A stretch of 64,000 bases of DNA from an archaeon GW2011_AR20. GTDB lineage: Archaea > Nanobdellota > Nanobdellia > SCGC-AAA011-G17 > GW2011-AR20. The notes under the pieces are model-generated. The model saw only the letters and a list, made by a program, of their open reading frames with translations, was not told where the DNA came from and did no database searches. The DNA is taken from the NCBI GenBank assembly GCA_000830315.1, contig CP010426.1, forward strand, positions 135,156 to 199,155. Reading direction: 5' to 3'. The translations under genes and the position numbers were made by a program. Below, piece by piece: positions 6,930-40,484 of this stretch. The number at the start of each line of letters is the position of its first letter. Positions within the stretch are counted from its first letter, which is position 1.

Positions 6930-7537
6930 GTATTTCTTTGAATTAAATTTTTTAGCCTATCCGGCATCATTATTGGAAACTCGATATATTTTATTTTCCA
7001 ATAATCAAGATATTCTTTCATTTTTTCAGTATTCTGTATGGGGCATAATAAGATGGTATCAGAAAATTTTAAAACATTCAAATCCTTTAAAATCCCCCCA
7101 TCATTTTTGTTTCTACCATAAAGGCTATAATAAAATCTCATTCTGTTTGATTTAGTAAATCCTCTTAACTCATATTTGAAAAGGTTGAATGAGACATAGC
7201 CGAAAGATGCTGATAAAAAATTATTATTAAGAACACTAAAGCCTTCTGCTAAAACTCCCTCTCTTGCCTTAAAAGTTTCGTTAAAAAGCTCTTTATAATT
7301 CCTGGAATTCAAATCAACATCAAAACCTTTTTTTTCTAAAAGTTTTTTCAGCTCATATTCCTTATCCAAATCTTTTTTATCTTTATATAAAATTAATATG
7401 TCAATATCATTTGGTTTTTCCTTTCCCTTTATAAAAGAACCGAAAATAATTATATCTAATAAAATATGCCTGTTTTTTTTGAGAAAATCCTTAAGTTCAG
7501 ACTTCAATTTTGTATTCTTTAGCTGTTCTTTTGACAT
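6926..7537 (-). CDS. Minimal nucleotidyltransferase (Pol-beta superfamily, MNT-like)
   Basis: 203 aa; 'GSFIKGKEKPNDIDILILY' = G[SG]x9-13Dx[DE] NTase motif. Confidence 0.7.
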   Translation of the reverse strand: MSKEQLKNTKLKSELKDFLKKNRHILLDIIIFGSFIKGKEKPNDIDILILYKDKKDLDKEYELKKLLEKKGFDVDLNSRNYKELFNETFKAREGVLAEGFSVLNNNFLSASFGYVSFNLFKYELRGFTKSNRMRFYYSLYGRNKNDGGILKDLNVLKFSDTILLCPIQNTEKMKEYLDYWKIKYIEFPIMMPDRLKNLIQRNT

Positions 7538-7916
7538 ATTCTTTTATTAAATCGCAGGTTTCTTTATCTATTGAAATTGAGTAAGTATCCCTATAAATTT
7601 TGAAATATTTATCTAATGAGGCGTATAATTCTGGGAAATCTTGTTGCAGAATTCTAAACCTTTCTGTATGATCTTTCGGAGTTTTTCCCTTTATTCCTAA
7701 AATTATAAAGTCTAAAATTGAAAAAATTGCCTTAAAATACAGTATTGTAGCAGATGTATAGTCCTTATTGGTATAAACTAAATCTGCAGATTTCAAGATG
7801 GTTTTTACATTTTTTATTAATTCGTCTTCAATCATGTTGGTATTATTAACAAAGAACTGATATTTAAACCTTTCGGTTGGTAGTACAAACATATCATGGT
7901 AAAAAGAATTTAGCAA
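7497..7916 (-). CDS. HEPN-like protein (partner of the upstream NTase)
   Basis: 139 aa all-helical; position immediately upstream of and overlapping an MNT gene, as in HEPN/MNT pairs; possible 'KDHTERFR' R/H motif; start may be the internal ATG at M9. Confidence 0.45.
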   Translation of the reverse strand: MLNSFYHDMFVLPTERFKYQFFVNNTNMIEDELIKNVKTILKSADLVYTNKDYTSATILYFKAIFSILDFIILGIKGKTPKDHTERFRILQQDFPELYASLDKYFKIYRDTYSISIDKETCDLIKEYVKRTAKEYKIEV

Positions 7917-10528: not shown

Positions 10529-10630
10529 AAGTGTGGGAGACACACTCAGAAACCCGATTCAATCGCACCGTAACAATATATATTAACGCCATATATTTGC
10601 ATAGTAATATGTAAAAATATTTAAAACTTG
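10529..10630. repeat. Direct repeat A (about 100 bp, about 85% identical to 11651..11750), begins with hairpin GTGTGGGAGACACAC
   Basis: gtgtgggagacacactcagaaacccgattcaatcgcaccgtaac... aligned by eye with copy B. Confidence 0.8.
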
Positions 10631-11602
10631 CTGTCATATTTTATTGTCCACAAAATAGAAACATTTATATATAATGTGGACAATAGTGTTAGTATGGTGT
10701 ATGTCGATAAAATCAAGTCAGGGAAAAAAACTTTTTACTATCTTGGAAAAACTATAAGAATAGGAGAAAATAAGTGGAAGAAAATAAGGATTAAATTAGG
10801 AGAAAAAAAGCCAACAAGAGAAGAAATAGGAGATAAACTAAAAAAGCTTAAGTTAGAGGAATATAAAGTTTACAATGAAGATTATTTAGATGCTGATAAA
10901 CTGGAGGTAATTGATGACTTCAGAGAGGTATACAATAATCATCTTAAACAAATACCTAAAACAATCGCTGAGAAAGAAGAAGCTGATTTTTTAATTAGAT
11001 TTACTTATAATTCTAATGCTATTGAAGGAAATAGATTAACGTTACGTGATACTTATTTAATAATTAAAGAAAAACAAATCCCTTCTGGAGCTCCACCAAA
11101 AGACTATAATGAAGCTATTAATGGGCGAGAAGCGTTTGAATTTATTAAAAAATATAAAGGAAAACTTACGATTGAGTTTATTGAAAGATTAAATGAGATA
11201 TTAACTAAAAATACCGGAGTAATTTATACTGGAAGAGTACGCTTTTTTCCAGTTAAAATTGAGGGGGCCGAACATATACCGCCAGAACCAGAAGAAGTTA
11301 AACCATTATTAAGAAAGATGATTAGATTTTATAATGAGAATAAGAAAAAGATTCATCCATTTATATTAGCTTGTTTGATACACGCACGATTTGTGGAGAT
11401 TCATCCATTTGAAGATGGAAACGGCAGAACTGGAAGAGCATTAATGAATTGGATTTTAATGCAAACAAAATATCCAAAAATTTTTGTTCCAGTAAAACTA
11501 AGACAAAAGTATTATGAAGCTATTGATCTTCACAACCAAAAGAACATTAAGAGTTATTGCCAAAAAATGTTTGAAATTGTGATAGAACAATTTAAATTAT
11601 AA
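10628..11602 (+). CDS. Fic/DOC family protein (AMPylation/phosphocholination-type)
   Basis: 324 aa; canonical Fic motif 'HPFEDGNGRTGRALMNWIL' (HPFx[DE]GNGR). Confidence 0.85.
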   Translation: MLSYFIVHKIETFIYNVDNSVSMVYVDKIKSGKKTFYYLGKTIRIGENKWKKIRIKLGEKKPTREEIGDKLKKLKLEEYKVYNEDYLDADKLEVIDDFREVYNNHLKQIPKTIAEKEEADFLIRFTYNSNAIEGNRLTLRDTYLIIKEKQIPSGAPPKDYNEAINGREAFEFIKKYKGKLTIEFIERLNEILTKNTGVIYTGRVRFFPVKIEGAEHIPPEPEEVKPLLRKMIRFYNENKKKIHPFILACLIHARFVEIHPFEDGNGRTGRALMNWILMQTKYPKIFVPVKLRQKYYEAIDLHNQKNIKSYCQKMFEIVIEQFKL

Positions 11603-11650
11603 TATCACCAATATTTTTCAGACTATTTTACAATACATTGATGTTAAGAA

Positions 11651-11750
11651 GGAATGTGGGAGACACACTTAGAATCCTGATTTGATTGCACCGTAACGAT
11701 ATATCTTTTTAACGATGTATATTTGTATAGTATGGTAATATATAAAACTT
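11651..11750. repeat. Direct repeat B (copy of 10529..10630)
   Basis: atgtgggagacacacttagaatcctgatttgattgcaccgtaacgatatat... Confidence 0.8.
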
Positions 11751-11782
11751 GTTATTATTAAAATAATATTTAAGAATAAAGA

Positions 11783-11914
11783 TTAATGAATCCTAGAAAT
11801 TATTGCTCCAACTATTGCTCCTACGATTGTGCCAGCTATCGCTCCTTCTATTCCATTACTAAACAATCCTATAATAGCACCAATTAGCGCCCCTATCTTA
11901 ATTAAGTCTGGCAT
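11783..11914 (-). CDS. Small glycine-zipper membrane peptide (43 aa)
   Basis: Hand translation: MPDLIKIGALIGAIIGLFSNGIEGAIAGTIVGAIVGAIISRIH*; repeated GxxxG/AxxxG; below the ORF-track size cut-off. Confidence 0.35.
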   Translation of the reverse strand: MPDLIKIGALIGAIIGLFSNGIEGAIAGTIVGAIVGAIISRIH

Positions 11915-12110
11915 TTTTCTCCAATTTTTTAATCCTCATTTCTATGTAGATTATATATAAAAGTATAATTGTTATAGCTACGGCTATTTTTATATAATAA
12001 TTATCGTTAAAAATAAGTTTAGTAATGGATGCAACAGCAAGGATTGGACCCAAAACCCATCCAAGTTTTTTCATAAAACCAACAAAACTTTCTTCTTTCT
12101 TTTTAATCAT
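11898..12110 (-). CDS. Small membrane protein, hypothetical
   Basis: 70 aa, 2 predicted TM helices. Confidence 0.3.
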   Translation of the reverse strand: MIKKKEESFVGFMKKLGWVLGPILAVASITKLIFNDNYYIKIAVAITIILLYIIYIEMRIKKLEKNARLN

Positions 12111-12111
12111 T

Positions 12112-12270
12112 TTAATGTTTTACTCCAACCCATATAAGAAAGATACCAAATAATCCTAAAATAAATTTATAGCTAAAACCAAGATTTAATACCCATGGAG
12201 CAATAATTATTATAACCCCTAATAGAACAGACATTGCCGCTCCACTTATTGTGTTTGTATTGCTAACCAT
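12112..12270 (-). CDS. Small membrane protein (52 aa), SPW-repeat-like
   Basis: Hand translation: MVSNTNTISGAAMSVLLGVIIIIAPWVLNLGFSYKFILGLFGIFLIWVGVKH*. Confidence 0.3.
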   Translation of the reverse strand: MVSNTNTISGAAMSVLLGVIIIIAPWVLNLGFSYKFILGLFGIFLIWVGVKH

Positions 12271-12305
12271 TATTGTTAATGAGATTTTATAATTTAAAAA
12301 TCTTT

Positions 12306-12518
12306 TTAATATTCACTTCTATGAAGTTTTGAGTGTTTTCTTACTGCTTTTTTGAATCTCTTTTTAAGTTTTTTATTAATTCTTTTAAGCATAACTTGTC
12401 TTTTTTTAGTTTCTTTTTTATATTCCTTTGCTAATTCTTTTAATTCTTCTAAAATCTTTTCTTTTTCATTTTCATCTCTTTTCATAATCTCGGAAAAGAG
12501 TTTTTGAGTTTTATCCAT
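12306..12518 (-). CDS. Lys/Glu-rich coiled-coil protein, hypothetical
   Basis: 70 aa, about 40% K/R/E. Confidence 0.3.
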   Translation of the reverse strand: MDKTQKLFSEIMKRDENEKEKILEELKELAKEYKKETKKRQVMLKRINKKLKKRFKKAVRKHSKLHRSEY

Positions 12519-12650: not shown

Positions 12651-13094
12651 CTAACCATAAACATAAAGTAATATTAAATATAAAACCATAAATGCTAATG
12701 GTATGTAAGCCTCTGTAATTGTTGTTTTATAATTTTTGTTAATATGGTAATCCTCTATAGTATAAGGTCTTATTGGCAAATATTCTTCTATATTATGTAT
12801 AACCCTAAATTTAGCAGAATTTAATTTTCTATAACTCCTAATGTTTAGATACCAAGAAACAGATATAATAATTCCAACTAAGGATAATAAAATTAATATC
12901 CTGTCTCTATTCATAACTGAAAAATAACTTACCAAACCAAATATAATGGAGTTTATTGTTAAATAAAAATTATTTGATATCAATCTTCTAGAGCTAACAT
13001 CATCTGCACTCTTTACATATATCTTATATTGCTCCAATAAATGATTTTGAAAATCCTTTTTATACTTTTTATTTATCAAATTTTTTGCTTCCAT
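12651..13094 (-). CDS. Small 3-TM membrane protein (candidate effector), last gene of the three-gene operon
   Basis: 147 aa; about 50-aa soluble N-terminus, two adjacent TM helices (INSIIFGLVSYFSVM / ILILLSLVGIIISVSWYL), about 55-aa loop, C-terminal TM; 2 nt downstream of the TIR-like gene. Confidence 0.4.
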   Translation of the reverse strand: MEAKNLINKKYKKDFQNHLLEQYKIYVKSADDVSSRRLISNNFYLTINSIIFGLVSYFSVMNRDRILILLSLVGIIISVSWYLNIRSYRKLNSAKFRVIHNIEEYLPIRPYTIEDYHINKNYKTTITEAYIPLAFMVLYLILLYVYG

Positions 13095-13096
13095 AT

Positions 13097-13591
13097 TTAA
13101 TCACTATTTAGCTCATTTGAGATTTCATCTATATCCCAATTAATAATTCTGGCTCCATTATCTCTCATTTGTTGAGGAATTCTATGATTCTCATATCTAT
13201 GAACCCTTACACCAATTACTTTTTTTTCTTGCGAATAAGCTTCATTTATCTCCCAGTTAACAGCGTCTCTACTATGTGTTTCAGGTCCTATTAAAACTAT
13301 TACTGTAGACGTCATAGCAATCCTTTCTCTGCATTGGGTCCTCCATTTTTCATCAAATGGCTCATTTACTGCATAATTAATAAAATCTAAATCATATTTA
13401 TCACTTTTTGCTTGGTGGGTCAATAGCTGTTTTGCATATTCATCATCTATATGAAAGCTAATAAATACTTTTTTTCTAGTTTTCTGAATTTCTCCATCCC
13501 CATTATAACTTGAAACTTTTTTATTTATTGCATTTTTAGTTGTTTGACTATAGCTCTGACGGGTTCCTCTTGGACCTCCTCCCATAAACAT
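13097..13591 (-). CDS. TIR-like domain protein (DUF1863 / ThsB-like flavour)
   Basis: 164 aa; 'KKVFISFHIDDEYAKQLL' = TIR box-1-like (VFISY/H), later 'AVNWEINEAYSQ' W-x-x-E motif; low-complexity N-terminus overlaps the upstream gene, so the true start may be later. Confidence 0.5.
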   Translation of the reverse strand: MFMGGGPRGTRQSYSQTTKNAINKKVSSYNGDGEIQKTRKKVFISFHIDDEYAKQLLTHQAKSDKYDLDFINYAVNEPFDEKWRTQCRERIAMTSTVIVLIGPETHSRDAVNWEINEAYSQEKKVIGVRVHRYENHRIPQQMRDNGARIINWDIDEISNELNSD

Positions 13592-14403
13592 ACACCTCCT
13601 TCAAATAATTTTTTCTGTTCATTTAATCTTTGTATGTTGTTAAATATTTCAATGAGATTTTCTTTAACAATTTTAGTGTTGTATTTCCCGGAGTATTTTA
13701 CTTTCTTTGTCCCAACAAATTTTTTTCCATTTAATGCGGTGACAAGATGTGTATTTGTAATGTATGCATCGGCAAATGAAAATTCTAATAAATTATTTTG
13801 CGAACCCATTCCATAAAGAAGCAAATATCTCGCATACGGTCTTATTTTAAATGCAAAATTTTTAGCTTTGTTGATCATATTTCTATCTCCAGATCTAAAA
13901 AAATCCCGGGTATGAAAAATAAAATCTTTTATTCCAAACATTTTCAATATTTTTACATGCTTCTCTATTATCCATTCATTGCATCCCTTAACGTGACCAA
14001 TTGGAAAACTAAATGGACATCGCTCTATTAATTCCTTAGTTTGGAACAACGATTTTTTAATTTCTTCGATAGATACGATTTGCTCTCCCTCATAAGTTTC
14101 ACAATCTGGCGTTGTATAAAAATTTGGTTTTAAGGTATTTATAATGAAAGCATAATCTGAGGGGGTCAGTTTAGAAAGCATATCATCTTTTACAATCAAC
14201 GATAGAATTATCATTCCATGATAGTTTAAATAATTGTGAATCCCACCAACATTCCTGATCTCATAAAAAACACTCTTGAGTTCTAAAGTTATATGCGAAA
14301 TTATATCTAACAATCTCACTACTACAAACTTTGTTGGTATGCTTTGAGCAACACCAATCATTTTCTTTTTGTTTACCTCTGTAATGGGTATAATTTCTAC
14401 CAT
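13525..14403 (-). CDS. Hypothetical 292-aa protein; weak resemblance to the C-terminal half of the tRNA-guanine transglycosylase (TGT/DpdA-like) TIM barrel
   Basis: 'RYLLLYGMGSQNNLLEFSFADAYITNTHLVTALNGKKFVG' vs TGT 'HLMGVGKPDDI...IDMFDCVMPTRSGRNGQAFT' (by-eye alignment only; no DSGGFQ or Zn motif seen). Confidence 0.3.
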   Translation of the reverse strand: MVEIIPITEVNKKKMIGVAQSIPTKFVVVRLLDIISHITLELKSVFYEIRNVGGIHNYLNYHGMIILSLIVKDDMLSKLTPSDYAFIINTLKPNFYTTPDCETYEGEQIVSIEEIKKSLFQTKELIERCPFSFPIGHVKGCNEWIIEKHVKILKMFGIKDFIFHTRDFFRSGDRNMINKAKNFAFKIRPYARYLLLYGMGSQNNLLEFSFADAYITNTHLVTALNGKKFVGTKKVKYSGKYNTKIVKENLIEIFNNIQRLNEQKKLFEGGVCLWEEVQEEPVRAIVKQLKMQ

Positions 14404-14570
14404 TTTTAATAGCTCTATCCTCTTGACCTCTTTTTTGCATGGTATTAGAGGGTTGAACTTATTTATATAGTTTTCTATTGACTTCTTTACGTAATAATAT
14501 AAGATTTAGACTAAAATAGAAATATTTATATAACTTATTATGCTTCTTTTTTGAAGAAGGAATCAATTAA

Positions 14571-15155
14571 ATGAAAGTATTAATATCTACAATTTGGAAA
14601 GGGTCTGCTGTTATACAGGCTATAAAACTATTTTCTCCTAATAAAGTCTTTTTTATTGCAGATGAACCTGTTGAAGATATAAGAAATAATTCTATTAATA
14701 TGATCAAAGAAATATTCCCTAATTTAGAATATAAAACTGTTCCAACTAAGATTTATGATATAGTAGGAATTGCAAAGTCTGTAATGGATATCATAGAATC
14801 AGAAACAGGAAATGAGATAATAGTTCATATTTCAGAAGGTAGAAAAACTATGAGTTTAGGTTTATTATTTGGTGCTTATGTTAAAAGAGAATTAGTTAGT
14901 TCTGCATATTATATTACTGAAGAAACAAATACACCAATTCAATTACCTCTCGTAAAACTTAAATTATCAAAACAAAAAAAAGGATTATTACAAAAAATTG
15001 ATGAGAACATTACCTCAATATCTGAACTTGCAAAGAAACTAAAGATCAAAGCTCCAACCGTATATGTTCATATGAAAGAATTAAGAGATGACGGCTTTTT
15101 GAATAAGGAAAATAAGCTCACAGAGATTGGGAGGATTATTCTTTTAAATAATTAA
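14571..15155 (+). CDS. Csa3-like regulator (Rossmann/CARF-like N-domain + C-terminal wHTH)
   Basis: 194 aa; N-terminus 'MKVLISTIWKGSAVIQAIKL' resembles the Csa3 start (MKxxxxTLGF); C-terminal 'ISELAKKLKIKAPTVYVHMKELRDDGFL' wHTH. Confidence 0.4.
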   Translation: MKVLISTIWKGSAVIQAIKLFSPNKVFFIADEPVEDIRNNSINMIKEIFPNLEYKTVPTKIYDIVGIAKSVMDIIESETGNEIIVHISEGRKTMSLGLLFGAYVKRELVSSAYYITEETNTPIQLPLVKLKLSKQKKGLLQKIDENITSISELAKKLKIKAPTVYVHMKELRDDGFLNKENKLTEIGRIILLNN

Positions 15156-15156
15156 A

Positions 15157-16314
15157 ATGACTACTTACTCTCATTCAAAACTTGGCACATTTCAACAATG
15201 TAAGTATAAATATAAACTTCAATATATTGATAAAATAAAAAGTGATTTAGAAAGTATTGAAATCTTTATGGGAAAACGTGTCCATGAGGCTTTAGAGAAA
15301 TTATATAATGATTTAAAATTCCAAAAATTAAATACTAAAGAAGAATTACTACAATTTTTTGAAAAAATCTGGGATGAGAATTGGCATGATAAGGTTTTCA
15401 TTGTTAAAGATGAATATACAGCTAAAAATTATAAAGAAATGAGTAAAAAGTTTATAGCAGATTATTATGATCATTATAAACCATTTAATCATAGAACGGT
15501 TATAGCTATAGAAACACAAGATAGAATGAATCTGTCTGAAGGATATCAATATCATATAAGGATAGACCATTTAGCTTGTGATAAAGAAGGAAATTATTAT
15601 GTTTGTGATTATAAAACAAATAATTTATTAAAAGCACAGGAAGAATTAGATGAAGACCATCAGTTAGCAATGTATTCTTTATGGGTCAAGCAAAAATATC
15701 CTGATGCTAAGTCTGTTAAATTAGTGTGGTATTTCTTAGCTTTTGATAAAGAAATGATTTCTGAAAGAAATGATGAACAGTTAAAAGAATTAAAAAAACA
15801 AATTGAAAAGTTAATCAAGGAAATAGAAGCTTGTAATAATTTCCCAACAAATGTTAGTTCTTTATGTGATTATTGTCAATATAAACCAATATGTCCTGCT
15901 TGGAAACATAAATTTGAAGTTGAAGAAAGTAAAAAAGAATTTTCTGAAGATTATGGTGGAAAGTTAGTGGATGAGTTTTCTAAGTTACAAGAAACTAAGA
16001 AACATGCTGAAGAAAAAATAGAAGAAATAAAAGAAGATCTTATCAAATTTGCTAAACAAAAAGAAATTGATGTGGTTTTTGGAACTGATAAGAGATGTTC
16101 TGTAAAAGAATATGATAAAATTATTTTTCCGGATGATAAGAAAGAGGAATTGTTGAAATTAATTAAGGATAAAGGAATTTATGATGAATTTTCATCTCTT
16201 AATTATTTTAAATTAAGCCCAAAGGTCCTTAAAAAAGAAGTTGATGAAGATATAATAAGTCTTACTGATAGGGAAAAAGCCTATAGATTAAGCTTATCCA
16301 AAAGGAGAGATTAA
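15157..16314 (+). CDS. Cas4-like PD-(D/E)xK nuclease with Fe-S cysteines (RecB-family), C-terminal charged extension
   Basis: 385 aa; N-terminal Cys 'FQQC', motif II 'IRIDHL', motif III 'VCDYKT' (D-x-K), 'QLAMYSLW' Q-x-x-x-Y, C-terminal 'CDYCQYKPIC' (C-x2-C-x5-C). Confidence 0.65.
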   Translation: MTTYSHSKLGTFQQCKYKYKLQYIDKIKSDLESIEIFMGKRVHEALEKLYNDLKFQKLNTKEELLQFFEKIWDENWHDKVFIVKDEYTAKNYKEMSKKFIADYYDHYKPFNHRTVIAIETQDRMNLSEGYQYHIRIDHLACDKEGNYYVCDYKTNNLLKAQEELDEDHQLAMYSLWVKQKYPDAKSVKLVWYFLAFDKEMISERNDEQLKELKKQIEKLIKEIEACNNFPTNVSSLCDYCQYKPICPAWKHKFEVEESKKEFSEDYGGKLVDEFSKLQETKKHAEEKIEEIKEDLIKFAKQKEIDVVFGTDKRCSVKEYDKIIFPDDKKEELLKLIKDKGIYDEFSSLNYFKLSPKVLKKEVDEDIISLTDREKAYRLSLSKRRD

Positions 16315-16370
16315 AAATTATTAGATTACAAAAGTGATTATAAAAAAGTAAAAGGAGTCTTAATAGAAAA

Positions 16371-17630
16371 ATGAAAACAAATCCCAAACAAAGAACAATC
16401 GGTTCAATATATCACAGAATGAAGGATAAAATAAATTTATCTGACAAAAGGTTTCAGAGGGGTTCTGTTTGGACGAGAGAGCAAGAACAATTTTTGATTG
16501 ATACATTAATTAAAAGTTTAGATATTCCAAAATTATATTTTTGGGATGTAAAAAACGAAGGTGTTTATGACTATTCTGTTGTGGATGGCCAACAGAGACT
16601 AACAACAATTTTTAGATTTTTAAACAATGAATTAGAATTGAATTCAGAATTCACACCAGAATTCGCAAATAAAACTTATGAAAAACTGCCAGAAGATTTG
16701 AAGGATGAAATATATAATTATGAGCTGACCATCGTTATAATAGAAGATGCAGATGAGGAAGCGATTCAGGACTTATTTTTACGACTCAACAACGGAACAA
16801 CATTGAAGTCCCAAGAGAAAAGAATGAATATCGGAGGAAATCTTTCAAAATATATTGTTAATATGACAAACCATAATATTTTTTCTAAAGTGACATTTAA
16901 AAATAAACACAGAGATTACGAGCAAATTTTAGCACAATGTATTAAACTAGAGCTAGAAGGAAAAACAACCAACACCCAAGGGAAATATCTGGATTTGATG
17001 TACAAAGAGGAAAAGGACTTTGATGTTAATGGAACCGTCGCCAAGAAATTTAAAAAAGTTTTAGATTATATGGGTGAAATATTCTCCGAGGAGAATAAAG
17101 TGCCGGAATTAAAACGATTTAATCTAATATCTTTATATTTGATGCTTTCTCAAATGATTGACAAATTTGTGATTAAAGACAAAAAAGATTTGTTTAAAAA
17201 ATTCCTGATTGGTTTTTGGAATGATTTAACAAATTATCGAGACCAAGAAAAAATATCTGATGACAAAAGAAACCTCGATTTTGATGATTTTATACAATTT
17301 ATCAGTAGCAGGACAGATAGTTTGGAATCGATAGATGGGAGACACAAAATTTTACTAAAATATTTTATGCTTAAAAATCCAAATTTAGAAATCTTTGATA
17401 ATAACAGAAATTTTACAGAAGAACAGCGACTTGTTATTTATCGAAGGGATAAAGAGATATGTTGGCATTGTGGTAAACACGTCGATTGGGTAGATTTTGA
17501 AGCAGATCATAGACCTAAACCATATAGCAAGGGTGGAAAAACGACTGTTGGAAACGGCACTTGTGCCCATCAAAGTTGTAATTTGAAAGCAAGTAATAAA
17601 GAAGAATTACTACCTGGATGGTTAAAATAA
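16371..17630 (+). CDS. DUF262 (ParB-like NTPase/nuclease, DGQQR) + C-terminal HNH-like domain; GmrSD/BrxU-like type IV restriction-type enzyme
   Basis: 419 aa; 'VVDGQQRLTTIFRFL' DUF262 signature; C-terminal 'CWHCGKHVDWVDFEADHRPKPYSKGGKTTVGNGTCAHQSCNLKASN' HNH/DUF1524-like. Confidence 0.7.
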   Translation: MKTNPKQRTIGSIYHRMKDKINLSDKRFQRGSVWTREQEQFLIDTLIKSLDIPKLYFWDVKNEGVYDYSVVDGQQRLTTIFRFLNNELELNSEFTPEFANKTYEKLPEDLKDEIYNYELTIVIIEDADEEAIQDLFLRLNNGTTLKSQEKRMNIGGNLSKYIVNMTNHNIFSKVTFKNKHRDYEQILAQCIKLELEGKTTNTQGKYLDLMYKEEKDFDVNGTVAKKFKKVLDYMGEIFSEENKVPELKRFNLISLYLMLSQMIDKFVIKDKKDLFKKFLIGFWNDLTNYRDQEKISDDKRNLDFDDFIQFISSRTDSLESIDGRHKILLKYFMLKNPNLEIFDNNRNFTEEQRLVIYRRDKEICWHCGKHVDWVDFEADHRPKPYSKGGKTTVGNGTCAHQSCNLKASNKEELLPGWLK

Positions 17631-17634
17631 TAAA

Positions 17635-19122
17635 ATGGTCGAAAAGATTACACTTTCAGAGTTAGAATCATACTTATGGGCTGCAGCAAATATACTTAGG
17701 GGTCCAATAGATAATGCAGACTTTAAAGCATATATATTTCCAATGTTATTTTTTAAAAGAATATCTGATGTTTATGATGAAGAATATCAATCTGCTCTAA
17801 AAAAATTTGATGGTGATGAAGAAGCAGCATCTTATCCTGAAAACTTTTCTTTTATTATTTCAGATAACGCTCATTGGAAAGATGTTAGAGCAAATACTAA
17901 AAATGTCGGTCAAGCAATTCAATATGCTTTTAGAACTATAGAAACTGCAAACCCGGACAGATTATATGGTATTTTTGGTGATGTAAATTGGACAAACAAA
18001 GAAAGATTGTCTGACGAGTTATTGATTAATTTGATTGAAAATTTCTCTACAAAGAATCTTTCAAAGGAAAATGTTGAACCAGATATATTGGGACAAGCCT
18101 ATGAATATCTTATTAAGAAATTTGCTGACCTCACTAATAAAACCGCCGGAGAGTTCTATACTCCTAGAGCGGTAGTTCATTTAATGGGTAATATTCTAAA
18201 ACCCAAAGAAAAAGACACAATCTATGACCCTGCTTGTGGTTCTGGTGGCATGCTTTTAGAAGCATTCAACTTTGTAAAAAATAAAGGGGGTGACGTTAGA
18301 ACACTTAAACTATATGGTCAAGAAAAGAATTTAACAACTTCTGCTATTGCCAGAATAAACTTGTTTTTACATGGGGTTGAAGACTTTCAAATAATTAGAG
18401 GAGATACACTAAGAAATCCAGCTTTCCATGAAGGGGATTTATTGTCTAAATTTGATGTTGTAATTGCTAATCCACCATTCTCATTAAAAAATTGGGGTGC
18501 CGTTGAATGGTCTCATGATCAGTTTAGTAGAAATATTGCTGGAACTCCCACAGACAATAGTGGTGACTTTGCTTGGGTCCAACATATGGTTTGTTCTATG
18601 GCACATCCAAATGGAAGAATGGGAATAGTTTTGCCACATGGTGCTTTATTTAGAGGGGGGGTTGAAGGCAAAATAAGAAAAGAACTTTTAACAAAAGATT
18701 TACTTGAAACAGTTATTGGTCTTGGACCAAATCTTTTCTATGGAACAGGAATTAGTGCCTGTATATTAATATTCAAACAAAAGAAAGATGCTAAAAAGCA
18801 AAATAAGATTCAGTTTATTGATGGTTCTGCATTATTTACTAAAGGGAGAAATCAAAATTTCTTTCGGGAAGAACATGCAAAACAAATTCTTGAATGGTAC
18901 AATAAATATGAAGATATAGAAAATATAAGTAAAATTGTTTCACTATCAGAAATAGAAGAGAATGAATTTAATTTAAATATTTCAAGGTATGTTGTAAAAC
19001 TGGATGAAGAAGATAAAATAACATTAAAGGAAGCATATACTGAAATGCTCAATACTCAAAAAGATTTTGAAAAATCGCAAGAAAAAATGATTAAAACCTT
19101 AACAAAATACAAGGTAATATGA
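17635..19122 (+). CDS. hsdM: Type I R-M N6-adenine DNA methyltransferase subunit (HsdM), copy 1
   Basis: 495 aa; 'DPACGSGGMLLEA' motif I, 'VIANPPFS' motif IV, HsdM N-terminal domain 'YLWAAANILRG'. Confidence 0.9.
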   Translation: MVEKITLSELESYLWAAANILRGPIDNADFKAYIFPMLFFKRISDVYDEEYQSALKKFDGDEEAASYPENFSFIISDNAHWKDVRANTKNVGQAIQYAFRTIETANPDRLYGIFGDVNWTNKERLSDELLINLIENFSTKNLSKENVEPDILGQAYEYLIKKFADLTNKTAGEFYTPRAVVHLMGNILKPKEKDTIYDPACGSGGMLLEAFNFVKNKGGDVRTLKLYGQEKNLTTSAIARINLFLHGVEDFQIIRGDTLRNPAFHEGDLLSKFDVVIANPPFSLKNWGAVEWSHDQFSRNIAGTPTDNSGDFAWVQHMVCSMAHPNGRMGIVLPHGALFRGGVEGKIRKELLTKDLLETVIGLGPNLFYGTGISACILIFKQKKDAKKQNKIQFIDGSALFTKGRNQNFFREEHAKQILEWYNKYEDIENISKIVSLSEIEENEFNLNISRYVVKLDEEDKITLKEAYTEMLNTQKDFEKSQEKMIKTLTKYKVI

Positions 19123-19123
19123 A

Positions 19124-20617
19124 ATGACAAAAACAATATCAGCCCAAGAACTAGAATCATATCTTTGGCAAGCTGCGAATATACTTAGAGGAGTAATTGA
19201 TGCAAGCGAATACAAAAGTATAATTTTTCCATTGATGTTTTTTAAGAGAATTTCTGATGCATATGATGAAGAGTATGAAATAGCTCTTGCTGAATCTAAA
19301 GGAGACAAAGAATATGCTTCATATCCAGAACAACACGAATTTCAAGTTCCTAAAGGATACCATTGGAATGATGTAAGACAAATTACAAAAGAAGTTGGAA
19401 GAGCTATTAAAAATGCAATGGAGAATCTAGAGAAAGCTAATCCAGATAAGTTAATGGGTATTTTTGGAGATAACAATTGGACAAATAAGGAAAGACTTTC
19501 TGACTCAATATTAATTAATTTGATTGAACACTTTTCGAGTTTAAATCTCTCTACTAAAAATGTGCCTCAAGATGAATTTGGAACTGCTTATGAATTTTTA
19601 ATAAAGAAATTTGCAGATGATAGTGGACACACTGCTGCTGAATTTTACACCAATAGGACTGTAGTCAGAATAATGGCACTAATTATGAATCCAAAACCGG
19701 GAGAATCTATTTACGACCCAACTTGCGGTTCTGGAGGTATGTTGCTTAATTCCGCATTGCTTGTTAAGGAAAAGGGTCAAGAGTATCGTGGCTTAAAATT
19801 ATATGGGCAAGAAATTAATCTAATAACTTCAGGTATTGCGAGAATGAACATGTTCATACATGGATTTAATGAATTTCATATTGTTAGAGGAGACACATTA
19901 AAACATCCCGCCTTTGTGGAGAATGACAAACTAAAGAAGTTTAATATTGTTATAGCTAATCCCCCATATTCAATCAGCAAATGGAATAAAGAGCTATGGA
20001 AACACGACCCTTGGGGGAGAAATAAATATGGTGTTCCTCCTGCAGGTAATGCCGATTATGCTTTTTTTCAACATTGTATATGTTCTATGGATGAAAAAAA
20101 TGGGAGATGTGGAATATTATATCCTAACGGAATACTTGAAAGAGATGCAGAAAAATCTATGCGACAAAAGATAGTTGAAGATGATTTGATTGAGTGTATT
20201 GTTGGCTTGGGAAAAGATTTATTTTATAATTCATCAATGGAATCATGCTTAGTATTCTGTAAAACTAATAAAGAAAAGAGTAAAAAAGGAAAAATATTAT
20301 TTATTGATGCTAAAGCAGAGATTACAAGAAAACAAACACAGAGTTTTTTAGAACCACATCATATTAAGAAGATACATGATGCTTACAAAGGTTTTGAAGA
20401 CATTAAAGGTTTTGCAAAAGTTGTTGACTTGGATGAAGTAAGAAAGAATGACTTTAATCTTAATCTAAGACTATATGTTGAAGAAAAAAGATATGTTGAT
20501 AATTCATTATTGGAAACTCCACTAAAGACTTACATTAAGGAATGGAAGGATAGTATAAAAGAACTTGAAAAATCAACAAAAGAAATGAACGAAGCTATTA
20601 AGGAGGTATTGAAATGA
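19124..20617 (+). CDS. hsdM: Type I R-M methyltransferase subunit (HsdM), copy 2 (tandem paralog, about 55% identical by eye)
   Basis: 497 aa; 'DPTCGSGGMLLNS', 'VIANPPYS', 'YLWQAANILRG'. Confidence 0.9.
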   Translation: MTKTISAQELESYLWQAANILRGVIDASEYKSIIFPLMFFKRISDAYDEEYEIALAESKGDKEYASYPEQHEFQVPKGYHWNDVRQITKEVGRAIKNAMENLEKANPDKLMGIFGDNNWTNKERLSDSILINLIEHFSSLNLSTKNVPQDEFGTAYEFLIKKFADDSGHTAAEFYTNRTVVRIMALIMNPKPGESIYDPTCGSGGMLLNSALLVKEKGQEYRGLKLYGQEINLITSGIARMNMFIHGFNEFHIVRGDTLKHPAFVENDKLKKFNIVIANPPYSISKWNKELWKHDPWGRNKYGVPPAGNADYAFFQHCICSMDEKNGRCGILYPNGILERDAEKSMRQKIVEDDLIECIVGLGKDLFYNSSMESCLVFCKTNKEKSKKGKILFIDAKAEITRKQTQSFLEPHHIKKIHDAYKGFEDIKGFAKVVDLDEVRKNDFNLNLRLYVEEKRYVDNSLLETPLKTYIKEWKDSIKELEKSTKEMNEAIKEVLK

Positions 20618-21762
20618 AAATTCCTAATAGCTGGAAAAAAGTTCAGTTTGGAGATGTCGTAAGTAAAATAAACGATAAAGTTTCAAACAGAGAAGAATGG
20701 ATTTTTAATAGATATATTGGTGGAGAACATTTTGATGAAGGCGAAATTAGAGTTACAAAATCAGCGCCTATTGAAGGAAATGAAGAAGTTATTGGTTCAG
20801 CATTTCACATGAGATTTAAGCCAGGACAAGTTCTTTATGTTACAAGAAATCCAAGATTACGTAAAGGTGGAATGGTAAATTTTGAAGGAGTTTGTTCTAA
20901 TGTCAGCTTTGTTATGGAAGCGAATGAAACAAAATTATTACAATCATTATTACCTTTTGTAATTCAAACAGAAGATTTTGTAAAACATACTTGCAACAAT
21001 GCACATGGTTCAACAAATCCATTCCTTAATTGGAAAGATATAGCAAATTACGAGTTTTTACTTCCGCCTTTAGTTGAACAGAAGAAGATTAATGAAGTGT
21101 TATGGGGTGTTGAGAACAGCATAATTAAATTAGAAATATATCTTCAAAAATTAAGAAGTTTTCAAGATAAAATAATAACTAATTTGTTAAAACCAAAAAA
21201 AGGCGGTAAATTAACTAAATTTGGAGAAATTATCAAACTTTCAAAGGAGAAGTCTCAAGCACCATATGGGAATTTAAAATATCTAGGATTAGAGCATATT
21301 GATTCAGGTGTAAGTATTTGTAATAAATTTTCAGATGCAAATAATGTTAAAAGCGTTACTTCCGTATTCAAAAAAGGAGACATATTATATGGTAAGCTTA
21401 GACCATATCTTGATAAAGCAGTTATTGCATCGTTCGATGGAATCTGCACAACTGAAATTTTAGTTATTAATGCAAATGATAAAACAACAAATGATTTTCT
21501 AATGTTACATATAAGAACAAAAGACTTCATTGATTATAATACTCGATTAGGATTTGGAACTAAAATGCCTAGAACTTCCGTAGAAATAATTTCTAATTAT
21601 GAAATATATCTTCCTTCAATAAGTGAACAGAAAATTCTTTTGAATACAACCAATAAATTAAATAAGCTGATTGCAGATGTAAATAAAAATAAAGCATCAC
21701 TAAAAAATCTTCGTAATAAACTCTCCAACGAACTTTTAAAAGGCGAGTTGAGGTTAGATTAA
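20614..21762 (+). CDS. hsdS: Type I R-M specificity subunit (HsdS), two target-recognition domains
   Basis: 382 aa; duplicated TRD architecture with conserved central/terminal helices (LPPLVEQKKI / LPSISEQKIL); 4-nt overlaps with flanking genes. Confidence 0.8.
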   Translation: MKIPNSWKKVQFGDVVSKINDKVSNREEWIFNRYIGGEHFDEGEIRVTKSAPIEGNEEVIGSAFHMRFKPGQVLYVTRNPRLRKGGMVNFEGVCSNVSFVMEANETKLLQSLLPFVIQTEDFVKHTCNNAHGSTNPFLNWKDIANYEFLLPPLVEQKKINEVLWGVENSIIKLEIYLQKLRSFQDKIITNLLKPKKGGKLTKFGEIIKLSKEKSQAPYGNLKYLGLEHIDSGVSICNKFSDANNVKSVTSVFKKGDILYGKLRPYLDKAVIASFDGICTTEILVINANDKTTNDFLMLHIRTKDFIDYNTRLGFGTKMPRTSVEIISNYEIYLPSISEQKILLNTTNKLNKLIADVNKNKASLKNLRNKLSNELLKGELRLD

Positions 21763-21763
21763 A

Positions 21764-24664
21764 ATGGTATTTAATGAACAAAACACAGTTGAACATTATG
21801 TAAGAGATTTACTTGTTAAAATGGGTTGGAAATATATTCCAAAAGAGCATTTGCCAAGGCAAGATGCCGATGTTTTAGTCGAAGAGCATTTAAAACAAGC
21901 ATTAATAAAATTGAATCCTGAAATAGCTGAAAAGCCTGAAAGAGCTGAAGAAGTATTATACAAGTTGAGAGCAATTCTTATTTCAGTTAGAGGAACAGGC
22001 ATTGTTAAAACAAATGAAGAGTTTACAAAATGGTTGAGAAATGAAAAAACAATGCCATTTGGAGAAAATAGTGAACATACTACTGTAAGATTAATAGATT
22101 TTGATAATATTGCTAATAATAATTTTGTTGTAACAACACAATATTCATTCACATCAGGTCAGAACATAAGACCAGATTTAGTTTTATTAATAAATGGTAT
22201 TCCATTAATTATAGGGGAGGCTAAAACTCCAGTAAGACCTGCAATATCTTGGGTTGATGGAGCATTGCAATTAGAAGGCTATCAAAATTATACTCCCGCA
22301 TTATTTGTTCCAAATATGTTTTGTTTTGCAACAGAGGGTAAAACTTACAGAGTAGGTTCAATTAAATTACCATTACAAAATTGGCAACCATGGAAGAAAA
22401 CTGACGATACTGCTTTTGAAGATTTAGAGGAATTAAGAAATTCCGTTAGTAGAATGTTAAATCCAGAAGTTATCATAGATATTTTACAAAATTTTACATT
22501 ATATAGCACAACTCAGGGTGGCCAAAAAATAAAAATAATGGTAAGATACCAACAATATGAAGGAGCAAAACAGATTGTTAAAAGAGTTATAGATGGTAAA
22601 ATAAAAAAGGGTTTGATTTGGCAATTCCAAGGCTCGGGAAAGTCTTTTTTAATGGTTTATGCAGCGATGCAATTAAGACAAGAAGAAAAACTCAAAAGTC
22701 CAACAGTTATTGTAGTCGTTGATAGGGTTGATTTAAACTCTCAAATTACTGCCACATTTAATGCATCTAATGTACCAAATATGGTCATTGCTGATTCTAG
22801 AGAAGATTTACAAAAATTCCTAAAACAAGATACTAGAAAAATAATAATCACAACAATTCATAAATTTGCAGAAGCTGAAGGGGTACTAAATGAAAGAAGT
22901 AATATTATTGTGTTAGTTGATGAAGCTCACAGAACACAAGAAGGCAATCTTGGTAACAAAATGCGAGAAGCCTTGCCAAACGCATTTTTATTTGGTCTTA
23001 CAGGTACTCCAATAAATAAAAGAGATAGAAATACTTTTTGGGCATTTGGAGCAATAGAAGATAAAAACGGTTACATGAATCGTTATTCTTTTGAACAGTC
23101 CCTAAGAGATGGGGCAACACTTCCAATCTATTTTGAACCAAGATTAGTAGAATTAAGAATAAATAAAGAACAGATTGACAAAGAATTTGAATGGTTAGTA
23201 AAAGAAGAACAATTAGATTATGGAGAAAAAACCGAACTTTCAAAAGAGGCTGCTAAATTTGGCATTATTGTTAAAACAAAAGATAGAATACAAAAAATTT
23301 GCACAGATATCGCAAAACATTTCAGAGAAGACATTGAACCGAATAATTTCAAAGGGCAAGTTGTTGTATTTGATAGAGAATCTTGTCATTTATACAAACA
23401 AGAGCTTGATAAACATCTACGACCAGAAGAAACAGCAGTTGTAATGACTGTCAAACAAAAGGGAGAGGAGGAATGGAGAAAATTATATGGTTTATCTGAT
23501 GATGATCAAGAAAAATTGTTAGACAGATTTAGAGATCCAAAAGACCCTCTTAAATTATTAATAGTTACTTCAAAACTTCTCACAGGGTTTGATGCACCAA
23601 TCAATCAAGTAATGTATTTGGATAAACCAATGAAAGATCATACTCTATTACAAGCTATTTGTAGGGTTAATCGACCTTATCCAAATAAAAACCACGGGCT
23701 TATTGTAGATTATCTTGGCATATTTGATAATGTTGGCAGAGCTCTTGACTTTGATATGGCTGAAATGAGAAATGTAATATTAAATATTGCAAAACTAAGA
23801 GAAGAATTACCAAAAGCTATGGATAAATGTTTATCTCACTTTAAAAATATTGATAGAAACATTGAAGAATATGAAGGATTACTTGCAGCCCAAGATTGTT
23901 TGCCTTCAAATGAAAAAAGAGATAAATTTGCTGGAGATTATTCATATTTAACAAAACATTGGGAAGCGGTGTCTCCTGATCCAATATTGAAAAAATTTAC
24001 GAAAGATTACAAGTGGCTTACACAAGTATATCAATCCATTCAACCGCCAAGCGGTAATGGGAGATTGATATGGCATGCATTAGGAGCAAAAACTCTTGAA
24101 TTAATCCATAGAAATATTGAAGTTCAGACAATCAGAGATGATCTAGATGTATTGGTAATGGATGCTAATATTTTAGAAAAAATTTCAGAGAGTAAAGCTA
24201 AAGAAAAAGCTAAGGAAATTGAAATGAAAATTGTTTGGCGACTTCATAAGCACGCTAATGATCCAAGATTTCAAGAACTTGGAAAAAGATTAGAAGAATT
24301 AAAAGAAAGACATTATCAAAATGCCATTAGCAGCATTGAATTTCTTAAAGGTTTACTAGAAATTGCAAAAGCAACCGTAAAATTAGAAAGAGAAACAGAA
24401 GCAGAACCTGTTGACGGAACAAAAGAAGCACTTACTCAATTGTTTTTGGAATGTAAAGTCGATAAAACCCCAATAATTTTAGAACAAATAATAAAAGATA
24501 TTGACCAAGTTGTAAAAGTAACTAGATTTGATGGATGGCAATGGACTAAAACAGGAGAAAGAGATATACAACAAGCACTTAGAAGAACCTTACTAAAATA
24601 TAAATTACATAAAGAACAAGATTTATTTGATAAGGCATTCGGGTATATTAGGGAGCATTATTAG
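21764..24664 (+). CDS. hsdR: Type I R-M restriction subunit (HsdR), nuclease + SF2 helicase
   Basis: 966 aa; N-terminal PD-(D/E)xK 'DLVLLINGIPLIIGEAKTP', Walker A 'QGSGKS', 'VLVDEAHRTQ' DEAH box. Confidence 0.9.
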   Translation: MVFNEQNTVEHYVRDLLVKMGWKYIPKEHLPRQDADVLVEEHLKQALIKLNPEIAEKPERAEEVLYKLRAILISVRGTGIVKTNEEFTKWLRNEKTMPFGENSEHTTVRLIDFDNIANNNFVVTTQYSFTSGQNIRPDLVLLINGIPLIIGEAKTPVRPAISWVDGALQLEGYQNYTPALFVPNMFCFATEGKTYRVGSIKLPLQNWQPWKKTDDTAFEDLEELRNSVSRMLNPEVIIDILQNFTLYSTTQGGQKIKIMVRYQQYEGAKQIVKRVIDGKIKKGLIWQFQGSGKSFLMVYAAMQLRQEEKLKSPTVIVVVDRVDLNSQITATFNASNVPNMVIADSREDLQKFLKQDTRKIIITTIHKFAEAEGVLNERSNIIVLVDEAHRTQEGNLGNKMREALPNAFLFGLTGTPINKRDRNTFWAFGAIEDKNGYMNRYSFEQSLRDGATLPIYFEPRLVELRINKEQIDKEFEWLVKEEQLDYGEKTELSKEAAKFGIIVKTKDRIQKICTDIAKHFREDIEPNNFKGQVVVFDRESCHLYKQELDKHLRPEETAVVMTVKQKGEEEWRKLYGLSDDDQEKLLDRFRDPKDPLKLLIVTSKLLTGFDAPINQVMYLDKPMKDHTLLQAICRVNRPYPNKNHGLIVDYLGIFDNVGRALDFDMAEMRNVILNIAKLREELPKAMDKCLSHFKNIDRNIEEYEGLLAAQDCLPSNEKRDKFAGDYSYLTKHWEAVSPDPILKKFTKDYKWLTQVYQSIQPPSGNGRLIWHALGAKTLELIHRNIEVQTIRDDLDVLVMDANILEKISESKAKEKAKEIEMKIVWRLHKHANDPRFQELGKRLEELKERHYQNAISSIEFLKGLLEIAKATVKLERETEAEPVDGTKEALTQLFLECKVDKTPIILEQIIKDIDQVVKVTRFDGWQWTKTGERDIQQALRRTLLKYKLHKEQDLFDKAFGYIREHY

Positions 24665-39649: not shown

Positions 39650-39722
39650 TGGGCCTGCCCAGATTCGAACTGGGGATCTCTTCGACGTCAACGAAGTGTC
39701 ATAACCACTAGACCACAAGCCC
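39650..39722 (-). tRNA. tRNA-Val (anticodon GAC)
   Basis: Minus: GGGCTTG..CTTCG-TTGACGT-CGAAG..CCCAG-TTCGAAT-CTGGG-CAGGCCC-A. Confidence 0.8.
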
Positions 39723-40392: not shown

Positions 40393-40484
40393 AGCCGCTG
40401 ACCGGATTTGAACCGGCGACCTGCTGTTTACAAAACAGCTGCTCTAGCCATTGCTCCTACCTTGATAGTCTGAGCTACAGCGGC
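40393..40484 (-). tRNA. tRNA-Thr (anticodon TGT) with a probable 18-20-nt intron in the D-loop
   Basis: Minus: GCCGCTG-TA-GCTC-AG[ACTATCAAGGTAGGAGCAA]TGGCTA-GAGC-A-GCTGT-TTTGTAA-ACAGC-AGGTC-GCCGG-TTCAAAT-CCGGT-CAGCGGC-T; 92 nt; everything except the D-loop insert is canonical. Confidence 0.6.

Follow-up and report, generated by a model that had tools for sequence, protein, structure and literature searches.

CARF domains are mainly regarded as the cyclic oligoadenylate (cOA) receptors of type III CRISPR systems, and Csa3 is regarded as a regulator of CRISPR loci. The C proteins of type II restriction-modification (R-M) systems are Xre-type helix-turn-helix (HTH) proteins of ~80–100 aa, whose gene usually precedes that of the restriction endonuclease (REase), and in bacteria RecBCD or AddAB processes DNA ends after restriction. 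In Sulfolobales, csa3a adjoins and regulates an acquisition cassette containing cas4 (cas4-cas1-cas2), and Csa3a binds cyclic tetra-adenylate (cA4) through two loops of its CARF domain, β1-α1 and β4-α4 (PMC8699464). ACE1 is a PF12705 nuclease that is accessory to a prokaryotic Argonaute (pAgo) (PMC12094033). For DPANN archaea, passages of Hudaiberdiev et al. (2017; PMC5704561) describe that CRISPR-Cas is largely absent and that solo-Cas4 genes adjoin R-M genes in several genomes. Here, we analyzed a stretch of 64,000 nucleotides of the archaeon GW2011_AR20 (contig CP010426.1, positions 135,156–199,155; in the following "the window"), in which a gene for a Csa3-like regulator, consisting of a CARF and a winged HTH (wHTH) domain, is directly followed by a gene for a Cas4-like nuclease with a putative Fe-S cluster.

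An initial annotation of this DNA had described the two genes as an orphan pair. This view had to be given up, as they open a run of seven genes on one strand which ends in a type I R-M system, and as the CARF gene is divergently coupled to a cassette containing a TIR-domain protein. The real unit is a family of Csa3-type regulators that heads R-M and other defense operons, with a TIR/TGT-fold/8xMP cassette as its partner (TGT: tRNA-guanine transglycosylase), plus a DPANN-wide family of AddB/ACE1-like nucleases that leads R-M operons. Both open reading frames (ORFs) are present where they had been placed, and the nuclease gene indeed begins 1 nt downstream of the regulator gene (junction TAA-A-ATG). 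The two genes and the region in front of them are as follows:

14404–14570 (no strand, 167 bp): divergent promoter with a putative operator, separating the operon of the TIR cassette from that of the CARF gene
14571–15155 (+, 194 aa): CARF + wHTH transcription factor of the Csa3/CARF3 family; CARF at residues ~1–125, wHTH at ~135–190
15157–16314 (+, 385 aa): Fe-S RecB-family PF12705 nuclease; core at residues 1–247, followed by a family-specific C-terminal module

The identification of the 194-aa protein as a Csa3-like CARF + wHTH protein was borne out. It matches the PADLOC model CARF3 from end to end (1.4e-67; positions 3–197 of 197) and exceeds the cutoffs of the NCBIfam model for Csa3 (TIGR01884; 64.7 bits, cutoff 60.2), of HFX_2341_N (31.7 bits, cutoff 30) and, with residues 140–179, of the ArsR-type HTH_5 (26 bits, cutoff 22). 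The match to the Pfam family Csa3_N (PF22662) stays with 17.6 bits under the cutoff of 27. No Xre/HTH_3 match was found in the Pfam scan, the wHTH being of the ArsR/MarR type. Weak sequence matches in the PDB comprise the CARF domains of Card1, Can2 and Crn1 as well as wHTH proteins of the ArsR/HlyU kind. Two pocket-loop motifs are invariant in the family, S-T-I-[WYF]-x-G after β1 (β1-α1 loop) and I-[ST]-E-G-R-K after β4 (β4-α4 loop). They are located at the same loops as the pocket motifs of Csa3 (T-h-G-F-(N/D)-E-x4-R and L-x2-G-h-R) but differ from these in sequence. The family is small (76 clusters); iterative jackhmmer searches with the protein drifted to generic wHTH proteins, and only strong full-length matches were retained.

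The CARF sample comprised 47 metagenome loci, and overall 43 non-redundant CARF loci were compared. In 17 of these 43 loci the next gene on the same strand codes for a DNA methyltransferase, which can belong to any of four unrelated families (N6_N4, C5, D12 and a C5+Eco57I fusion). The nuclease takes this place in seven loci, GmrSD in two, and ERCC4, Bro-N and Schlafen proteins in one each; in nine loci there is no same-strand follower (convergent gene). Most CARF genes are separated from the next gene by 1 nt or overlap it by 4 nt. As the genes adjoining or convergent on the CARF-led methyltransferase genes encode type II REases, of at least five families, the CARF-wHTH gene heads complete R-M systems and stands there in the position of a controller protein. 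According to a crude neighbor-joining tree, partnership with the nuclease is typical of the CARF clade of the window and occurs also in a second, deeper clade, and partnership with methyltransferases typifies a third. One operon (locus L139, 384–4827), which encodes a CARF-wHTH protein, a GmrSD enzyme of 788 aa, a DUF2779 protein (a Cas4-like nuclease) and a MazG-like protein, repeats the CARF/GmrSD/Cas4-like theme of the window with a non-orthologous nuclease. A short Cas4 gene divergent from the CARF gene (L101) is restricted to one lineage and therefore counts as a single example.

The 385-aa protein had been credited with all hallmarks of Cas4, which holds for its motifs and fails for its family. 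In alignments of 15 and 33 members the residues C15, D137, D151, K153, Q169-x3-Y173 and C237-x2-C240-x5-C246 are invariant. Y152 is invariant in the smaller alignment and conserved in at least 90% of the sequences of the larger one. RecB motifs II and III and the Q-h-x-x-Y motif are thereby present, and C15, C237, C240 and C246 are, judged from sequence, the four candidate ligands of a putative Fe-S cluster. The profile PF12705 (PDDEXK_1) is matched with 110.6 bits (cutoff 22) over positions 2–247 of 247, whereas the two Cas4 models, PF01930 (18.5 bits, cutoff 22.7) and TIGR00372 (26.9 bits, cutoff 65), remain under their cutoffs. A Foldseek search with the AlphaFold model of the nuclease (predicted local distance difference test, pLDDT, 76.6) returned the nuclease domains of AdnAB as best match (1.3e-11) and ACE1 as second (3.9e-9), together with AddAB (5.5e-6) and Dna2 (~5e-6). 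Canonical Cas4 ranked lower (SSO0001, 4e-5; Cas4 in Cas4-Cas1-Cas2 complexes, ~2e-4), and a PDB sequence search agrees with this ranking. The core of the nuclease is thus nearest to AdnAB, AddB and ACE1 and not to Cas4 proper.

The charged C-terminal extension of about 140 aa, which had been pointed out as well, is confirmed, as 48% of the last 138 residues are K, R, D or E versus 32% in the core. This module is conserved family-wide and consists of a long helix (266–302) and a small α/β domain (306–382). Searched alone, the C-terminal 138 residues gave neither a significant Pfam match nor a clear match to a solved structure in Foldseek. The family itself is large, with more than 1,800 matches in the first search and 378 clusters at 50% identity with E<1e-30, and nearly all members are 380–410 aa long. 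A pattern scan of the GTDB species representatives confirmed 231 relatives, practically without exception in DPANN, and some genomes carry two copies on one contig. One protein of 2709 aa (P0358) contains the nuclease-family domain at residues 1568–1949, a fusion that might hint at functional partners.

A CARF-wHTH gene is found within 10 kb of the nuclease gene in eight of 80 species-level loci, being located immediately or nearly upstream in five of them; nuclease genes without a CARF neighbor account for ~90% of the loci. The proposed pairing is nevertheless not random, as CARF genes occupy 5 of 140 gene positions at −1 to −3 of the nuclease gene versus 3 of 800 elsewhere (p=0.003), and wherever CARF and nuclease genes are adjacent, they are invariably 1 nt apart or overlap by 4 nt, whichever lineage has the pair. 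As a unit, however, the pair did not hold up, and most CARF loci have a methyltransferase instead. An obligate two-gene system of CARF protein and nuclease was ruled out, since each gene mostly occurs without the other.

Genes for R-M and GmrSD enzymes (HsdM/S/R, other methyltransferases, GmrSD) make up 24 of 164 genes at +1 to +3 of the nuclease gene, compared to 1 of 140 at −1 to −3 and 9 of 457 in the background (Fisher p=1.4e-8). The primary association of the nuclease is with R-M, and since R-M genes are enriched downstream only, while a CARF gene is missing from ~90% of the loci, it is the nuclease that leads the R-M genes. In several lineages the start or stop codon of the nuclease gene overlaps with a CARF or R-M gene. 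Other neighbors are toxin-antitoxin-like, Schlafen, DUF2075, PIN and Fic genes, and conserved housekeeping synteny was not seen. In the closest other species, whose nuclease is 89% identical, the order nuclease-GmrSD-HsdM-HsdM-HsdS-HsdR is kept and three unknown genes replace the CARF gene. An operon that recurs in L140/L141 (138–3218) and L052 encodes a member of the nuclease family, a Vsr-like endonuclease and a ~510–543-aa protein without annotation, and it is convergent on a CARF-headed C5 methyltransferase gene.

In the window, the same-strand run 14571–24664 continues beyond the regulator and the nuclease with five further genes, with a spacing of 1, 56, 4, 1, −4 and 1 nt along the run:

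16371–17630 (+): GmrSD_N (DUF262) + HNH nuclease, a type IV-like restriction enzyme (PF03235 70.9 bits, HNH 25.3 bits, PADLOC NsnA 9e-37)
17635–19122 and 19124–20617 (+): HsdM paralogues, tandem type I R-M methyltransferases (profile matches)
20614–21762 (+): HsdS, type I R-M specificity subunit (Methylase_S)
21764–24664 (+): HsdR, type I R-M restriction subunit (HSDR_N, SWI2_SNF2, ResIII, T1R_D3-like)

Both HsdM paralogues are full-length, and their tandem arrangement is kept in a related species locus (L007). In the GmrSD protein the DUF262 domain is fused to HNH in place of the usual GmrSD_C/DUF1524, and another locus (L006) has a shorter variant of 377 aa in the same slot.

The operon divergent from the CARF gene comprises three genes on the minus strand:

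13525–14403 (−): U292, first gene of the cassette, an uncharacterized 292-aa protein with a TGT TIM-barrel fold (no Pfam family; 78 clusters, none named)
13097–13591 (−): ThsB-like TIR protein (PF08937 63.2 bits; PADLOC ThsB 1.2e-15)
12651–13094 (−): small membrane protein of the 8xMP family, putative membrane effector of the TIR cassette (PF24838 113 bits)

The fold of U292 was assigned from a structure model (pLDDT 88; predicted template modeling score, pTM, 0.84), for which Foldseek returned tRNA-guanine transglycosylase structures (E 2e-10, TM score 0.63–0.71) at ~12% identity. The TIR ORF and the 3′ end of U292 share ~60 nt (13525–13591), and an alignment of its homologues shows an invariant VF-S-[FY], a W-E catalytic motif and an N-terminal MGGG; two loci (L142/L143) have a TIR gene that is divided between ORFs of 99 and 117 aa. 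8xMP accompanies TIR and U292 in every cassette seen. Wherever the cassette is present in the CARF-anchored set, it is immediately divergent from the CARF-wHTH gene, which is the case in 11 of 38 informative CARF loci and in two CARF clades (cassette loci: the window, L052, L092, L093, L117, L122, L125, L130 and L138–L143). In a separate test anchored on four divergent U292 homologues, the partner was a CARF-type wHTH protein in three of the four lineages and a plain wHTH protein in the fourth. In one of the three CARF-type lineages U292 is 36% identical, and its regulator represents another CARF-like/winged-helix variant. No SIR2, SLOG or Macro match, and thereby no ThsA, was found near the TIR gene, this arrangement of U292 and 8xMP is not covered by any PADLOC model, and a literature search yielded nothing relevant on the U292-TIR-8xMP cassette or on 8xMP. 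The cassette may represent an undescribed Thoeris-like system.

The 167 bp between the two operons contain mirror-image TATA boxes (14463–14469 and 14527–14533), beside which lie the two arms of a 16-nt inverted repeat (14464–14479/14515–14530). Related loci have clade-specific repeats at the equivalent place, and inverted repeats are stronger upstream of CARF genes than in 372 control upstream regions of the same loci (p=0.003). For one CARF subclade a GGAAWWTCC-like box, highly specific to the upstream regions of CARF genes, is a candidate operator. Such boxes are located ~40–75 nt 5′ of the CARF start in L108, L111, L113, L115–L118, L122–L125 and L132, and they are present with either flanking partner, methyltransferase or TIR cassette. 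In the methyltransferase clade there are often two copies ~20 nt apart, at about −73/−62 and −53/−42; the paired boxes of relatives of the window's regulator read GGAATTTCC. At least two boxes occur in 5 of 44 CARF upstream regions versus 1 of 532 controls (p=1.2e-5), counted with a pattern that was derived post hoc. The CARF clade of the window shares CTTTAG/CTAAAG repeats instead of this box.

The host is archaeal, as shown by a TFIIB gene in the window, and the closest relatives stem from metagenome-assembled genomes of Woesearchaeota and Nanoarchaeota; the host is a Woesearchaeota-like member of DPANN. A scan for sigma-70 promoters and terminators was set aside, as the host is an archaeon. 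The seven-gene run and the divergent cassette lie in a chromosomal defense island of ~17 kb (~10.6–28.3 kb), which is completed by Fic and by RadC and an integrase (27114–28328) and has housekeeping genes on both flanks. Outside the island the window contains housekeeping genes, judging from a batch profile scan of its other 45 ORFs. Searches for tandem and interspaced repeats found no CRISPR array in the window, just as the initial annotation had stated, and profile scans, which included this batch, found no cas genes among its ORFs. No array was found in 137 related loci (1.59 Mb) either. Weak "Cas3" matches in the window co-occur with the generic helicase models DrmD, BrxH, HamB and DinG, and in the same batch Pfam reports one DEAD/Helicase_C protein and one ERCC4 domain. 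These matches are probably due to a Hef-like superfamily 2 helicase, an attribution made from batch output that gives no assignment to individual ORFs. A literature search retrieved no paper connecting AR20, Woesearchaeota and CRISPR. Both families are better known from CRISPR loci and occur in the window without CRISPR, and the suggestion of a non-CRISPR role for both is supported.

Several further features of the window were recorded. The left edge of the island (10628–12518) consists of the gene for a Fic-domain protein followed by four small ORFs (52–70 aa), some of them predicted membrane proteins, and is kept in L001–L004. Outside the island, a DUF6932/nucleotidyltransferase protein and an overlapping 139-aa ORF (6926–7916, −) resemble a toxin-antitoxin pair of the MNT/HEPN type; wHTH-nucleotidyltransferase genes similar to this pair recur near the nuclease in 11 species loci. 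A partial tRNA match (40401–40450, −; Rfam 30.2 bits, model positions 8–63), ~680 nt from an intact tRNA-Val (39650–39722), could be the remnant of an integration site. The highest G+C of the window (up to 0.37) is reached at 30046–38687 (−), where a giant ORF of 2165 aa is followed by one of 715 aa.

With moderate confidence, we propose that the locus encodes a ligand-sensing controller of defense operons and a DNA-end nuclease accessory to R-M, in the chromosome of an apparently CRISPR-less DPANN archaeon. What the analysis shows are the identities of the domains, the motifs for catalysis and cluster, the folds, the arrangement of the genes and, across many lineages, statistically supported associations with neighboring genes. 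The CARF-wHTH protein would be a dimeric transcription factor of the Csa3 type, whose wHTH domains bind the 167-bp divergent promoter region, presumably at its repeats, and whose CARF pocket may sense a small nucleotide-derived ligand. It would set expression to the right, where the nuclease, GmrSD/HNH and type I R-M genes would be co-transcribed, and expression of the TGT-fold/TIR/8xMP cassette to the left. It would hence act like the controller (C) protein of an R-M system or a WYL-type regulator of a defense island, but with a CARF sensor. The nuclease, as a likely partner of R-M and accessory to restriction, would by analogy resect or degrade DNA ends that are left by R-M or GmrSD cleavage.

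A number of points weigh against this proposal. The scans that yielded the related loci used peptide patterns of the very genes under study, and many loci stem from few groundwater datasets, so that the counts are not fully independent; the ORFs were called mechanically. The operator pattern was counted in the same sequences from which it had been derived, and the intergenic region of the window has no GGAATT box, only the degenerate CTTTAG repeats of its clade. The 56-nt gap before the GmrSD gene holds a TATA-like element (TTATAAAA), given which the run 14571–24664 may be more than one transcript. The likeness to C proteins is imperfect, as a classical C protein is a small Xre-type protein that precedes the REase, whereas the window's family precedes methyltransferases. 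Most CARF loci lack the TIR cassette and no ligand-producing cyclase is evident. A recognizable R-M gene is located within three genes of the nuclease in just ~31% of its loci, and the identity of 50–65% across DPANN lineages is unusually high for a defense gene.

The last two points are also the strength of an alternative in which the nuclease is a housekeeping enzyme of general DNA-end resection or repair, its adjacency to CARF and R-M genes resulting from shuffling in small genomes or from incidental co-location in variable regions. The full-length conservation across 378 clusters would suit such an enzyme, about two thirds of the loci have no recognizable R-M gene nearby, and solo-Cas4 is reported in passages of PMC5704561 to be mostly vertically inherited under ordinary purifying selection. 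Incidental co-location, however, does not readily account for an R-M enrichment that is strong, directional and confined to the downstream side, nor for start/stop overlaps with CARF or R-M genes in several lineages. Furthermore, housekeeping synteny is not conserved around the nuclease, its neighbors are variable and of the defense type, and some genomes have two copies on one contig. We consider this alternative unlikely but not negligible.

Rather doubtful, too, is a variant in which the CARF-wHTH protein is the receptor of a nucleotide signal from the divergent ThsB-like TIR enzyme, possibly made together with the TGT-fold enzyme. The four genes would then form a Thoeris-like pathway with two outputs, the 8xMP membrane effector and the transcriptional switch-on of the adjacent restriction, methylation and nuclease genes. 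As most CARF loci lack the cassette, the TIR product could serve as the general CARF ligand only if it were produced at another place in the genome. If the variant were true, the regulator could be a transcriptional arm of TIR signaling, and CRISPR-less DPANN archaea would have put CARF sensing to use in signaling that involves neither cOA nor CRISPR.

Improbable is the idea of a split effector similar to Can2/Card1, in which the CARF protein binds the nuclease and activates it allosterically upon binding of a cyclic nucleotide. The translationally coupled layout (1-nt gap or 4-nt overlap) in every lineage with the pair, the weak resemblance of the CARF domain to those of Card1 and Can2 and the existence of CARF-PD-(D/E)XK fusions (PADLOC CARF4 matches) would be in line with it. 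The CARF protein, however, has a wHTH output domain of its own and usually precedes methyltransferases, ~90% of the nuclease-family loci have no CARF gene nearby, and the nuclease core is of the end-processing AddB/AdnAB type and not the restriction-endonuclease-like domain of Can2/Card1.

Very improbable, in our view, is a function of the pair in an integrated virus or plasmid, be it in replication and recombination or in anti-defense, as has been proposed for Cas4 encoded by mobile genetic elements (MGEs). The mobile-element context assumed in the initial annotation turned out to be a chromosomal defense island rather than a virus or plasmid. In favor of the idea are the integrase and RadC with which the island ends and the lower G+C at 10–16 kb and 24–28 kb of the window, and MGE-encoded Cas4 is common in archaeal viruses according to passages of PMC5704561. 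Yet, the integrase is 11 kb away from the pair, profile scans found no structural, replication or conjugation genes from Fic to the integrase, where the content is defense genes, and the pair recurs in different chromosomal contexts. On the viral contigs of IMG/VR neither family was found beyond fragments of 34–43 aa. The related suggestion that the nuclease is a solo-Cas4 of viruses or plasmids, or that it modulates CRISPR adaptation, was dropped for the same lack of viral relatives, for the lack of arrays in the related loci and for the scarcity of CRISPR in DPANN. Hardly credible, finally, is that the genes are dispersed parts of a CRISPR adaptation machinery, a cas4 and a csa3 that serve a CRISPR-cas locus elsewhere or modulate adaptation as Csa3a does in Sulfolobales: membership in the Csa3 family at NCBIfam level, the Cas4-type motifs with their Fe-S cysteines and the Sulfolobales precedent of csa3a next to cas4 speak for it, but the Cas4 cutoffs are not reached, structural comparison places AdnAB and ACE1 closer than Cas4, major branches associated with CRISPR are missing from PF12705 according to passages of PMC5704561, the window has no arrays or cas genes and the 137 related loci no arrays, DPANN archaea largely lack CRISPR-Cas, and the regulator's usual partners are methyltransferases, REases and the TIR cassette.

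Several known systems are comparable. With Can2 and Card1 the locus shares the combination of CARF and PD-(D/E)XK nuclease, at weak similarity of the CARF domains, but it distributes them over two polypeptides with ORFs 1 nt apart, fuses CARF to a wHTH domain and employs a nuclease of the RecB/AddB Fe-S type. The cassette resembles Thoeris in its ThsB-family TIR protein with W-E motif and in having a putative effector; it differs in lacking ThsA (SIR2/SLOG or Macro), having a TGT-fold enzyme, 8xMP and a CARF-wHTH regulator instead.

The nuclease has its best structural and sequence matches in AdnAB and AddAB, with which it shares the RecB motifs and the Fe-S "staple" cysteine pattern. In these bacterial enzymes of double-strand-break repair, however, the nuclease domains are fused to superfamily 1 helicases, whereas the window nuclease has no helicase domain. 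ACE1 is likewise a PF12705-type Fe-S nuclease, and it adjoins and boosts a non-CRISPR, DNA-targeting immune system (PMC12094033). Unlike the window nuclease, to which it is 13–14% identical, ACE1 has only ~266–269 aa, no C-terminal module and a cyanobacterial long-A pAgo as partner. Like the DPANN solo-Cas4 of PMC5704561, the window nuclease is a non-CRISPR nuclease of the Cas4 superfamily in DPANN. The passages of that study center on solo-Cas4 of PF01930 and treat PF12705, to which the window nuclease belongs, briefly; in the passages searched there is no 385-aa two-domain family, no directional pattern of a nuclease leading R-M genes and no CARF-wHTH partner. The R-M adjacency of DPANN Cas4-like nucleases, known since 2017, is thus quantified and extended here, and the abundant "solo Cas4-like" nucleases of DPANN gain a concrete candidate role, as accessories that lead R-M operons, for a question that dates from the same year.

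As to the regulator, WYL/BrxR/CapW-type proteins are comparable in being small regulators at the 5′ end of defense operons, and WYL, like the window regulator, joins a ligand-sensing domain to an HTH. The resemblance to C proteins lies in the co-oriented position at the 5′ end of an R-M operon and, for the family, in repeated or palindromic upstream boxes. These operator boxes are held by the family, the window's own clade having just the 16-nt inverted repeat and degenerate CTTTAG repeats. From C proteins of the C.PvuII/C.AhdI type the window regulator differs in its length of 194 aa, in its CARF + wHTH composition and in the habit of its family to precede the methyltransferase. With Csa3a and Csa3b of the Sulfolobales type I-A systems it shares the two-domain architecture, the size and the passing of TIGR01884; invariant positions fall into both loops with which Csa3a binds cA4, and the window regulator likewise adjoins genes for immunity, a Cas4-like nuclease among them, which it presumably regulates. 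It differs from them in having no CRISPR-cas genes nearby, in belonging to a CRISPR-poor lineage, in falling below the Csa3_N cutoff and in the sequences of the pocket motifs. The partners of its family are different as well, namely R-M methyltransferases, REases, GmrSD, the PF12705 nuclease and the TIR cassette. In a lineage that is largely CRISPR-less, a Csa3-type family stands at the head of type II R-M systems, of GmrSD enzymes and of one type I R-M operon, and, if the regulator does sense a ligand, this would amount to signal-controlled restriction-modification, with a CARF sensor in the place that the Xre-type C proteins hold in type II systems.

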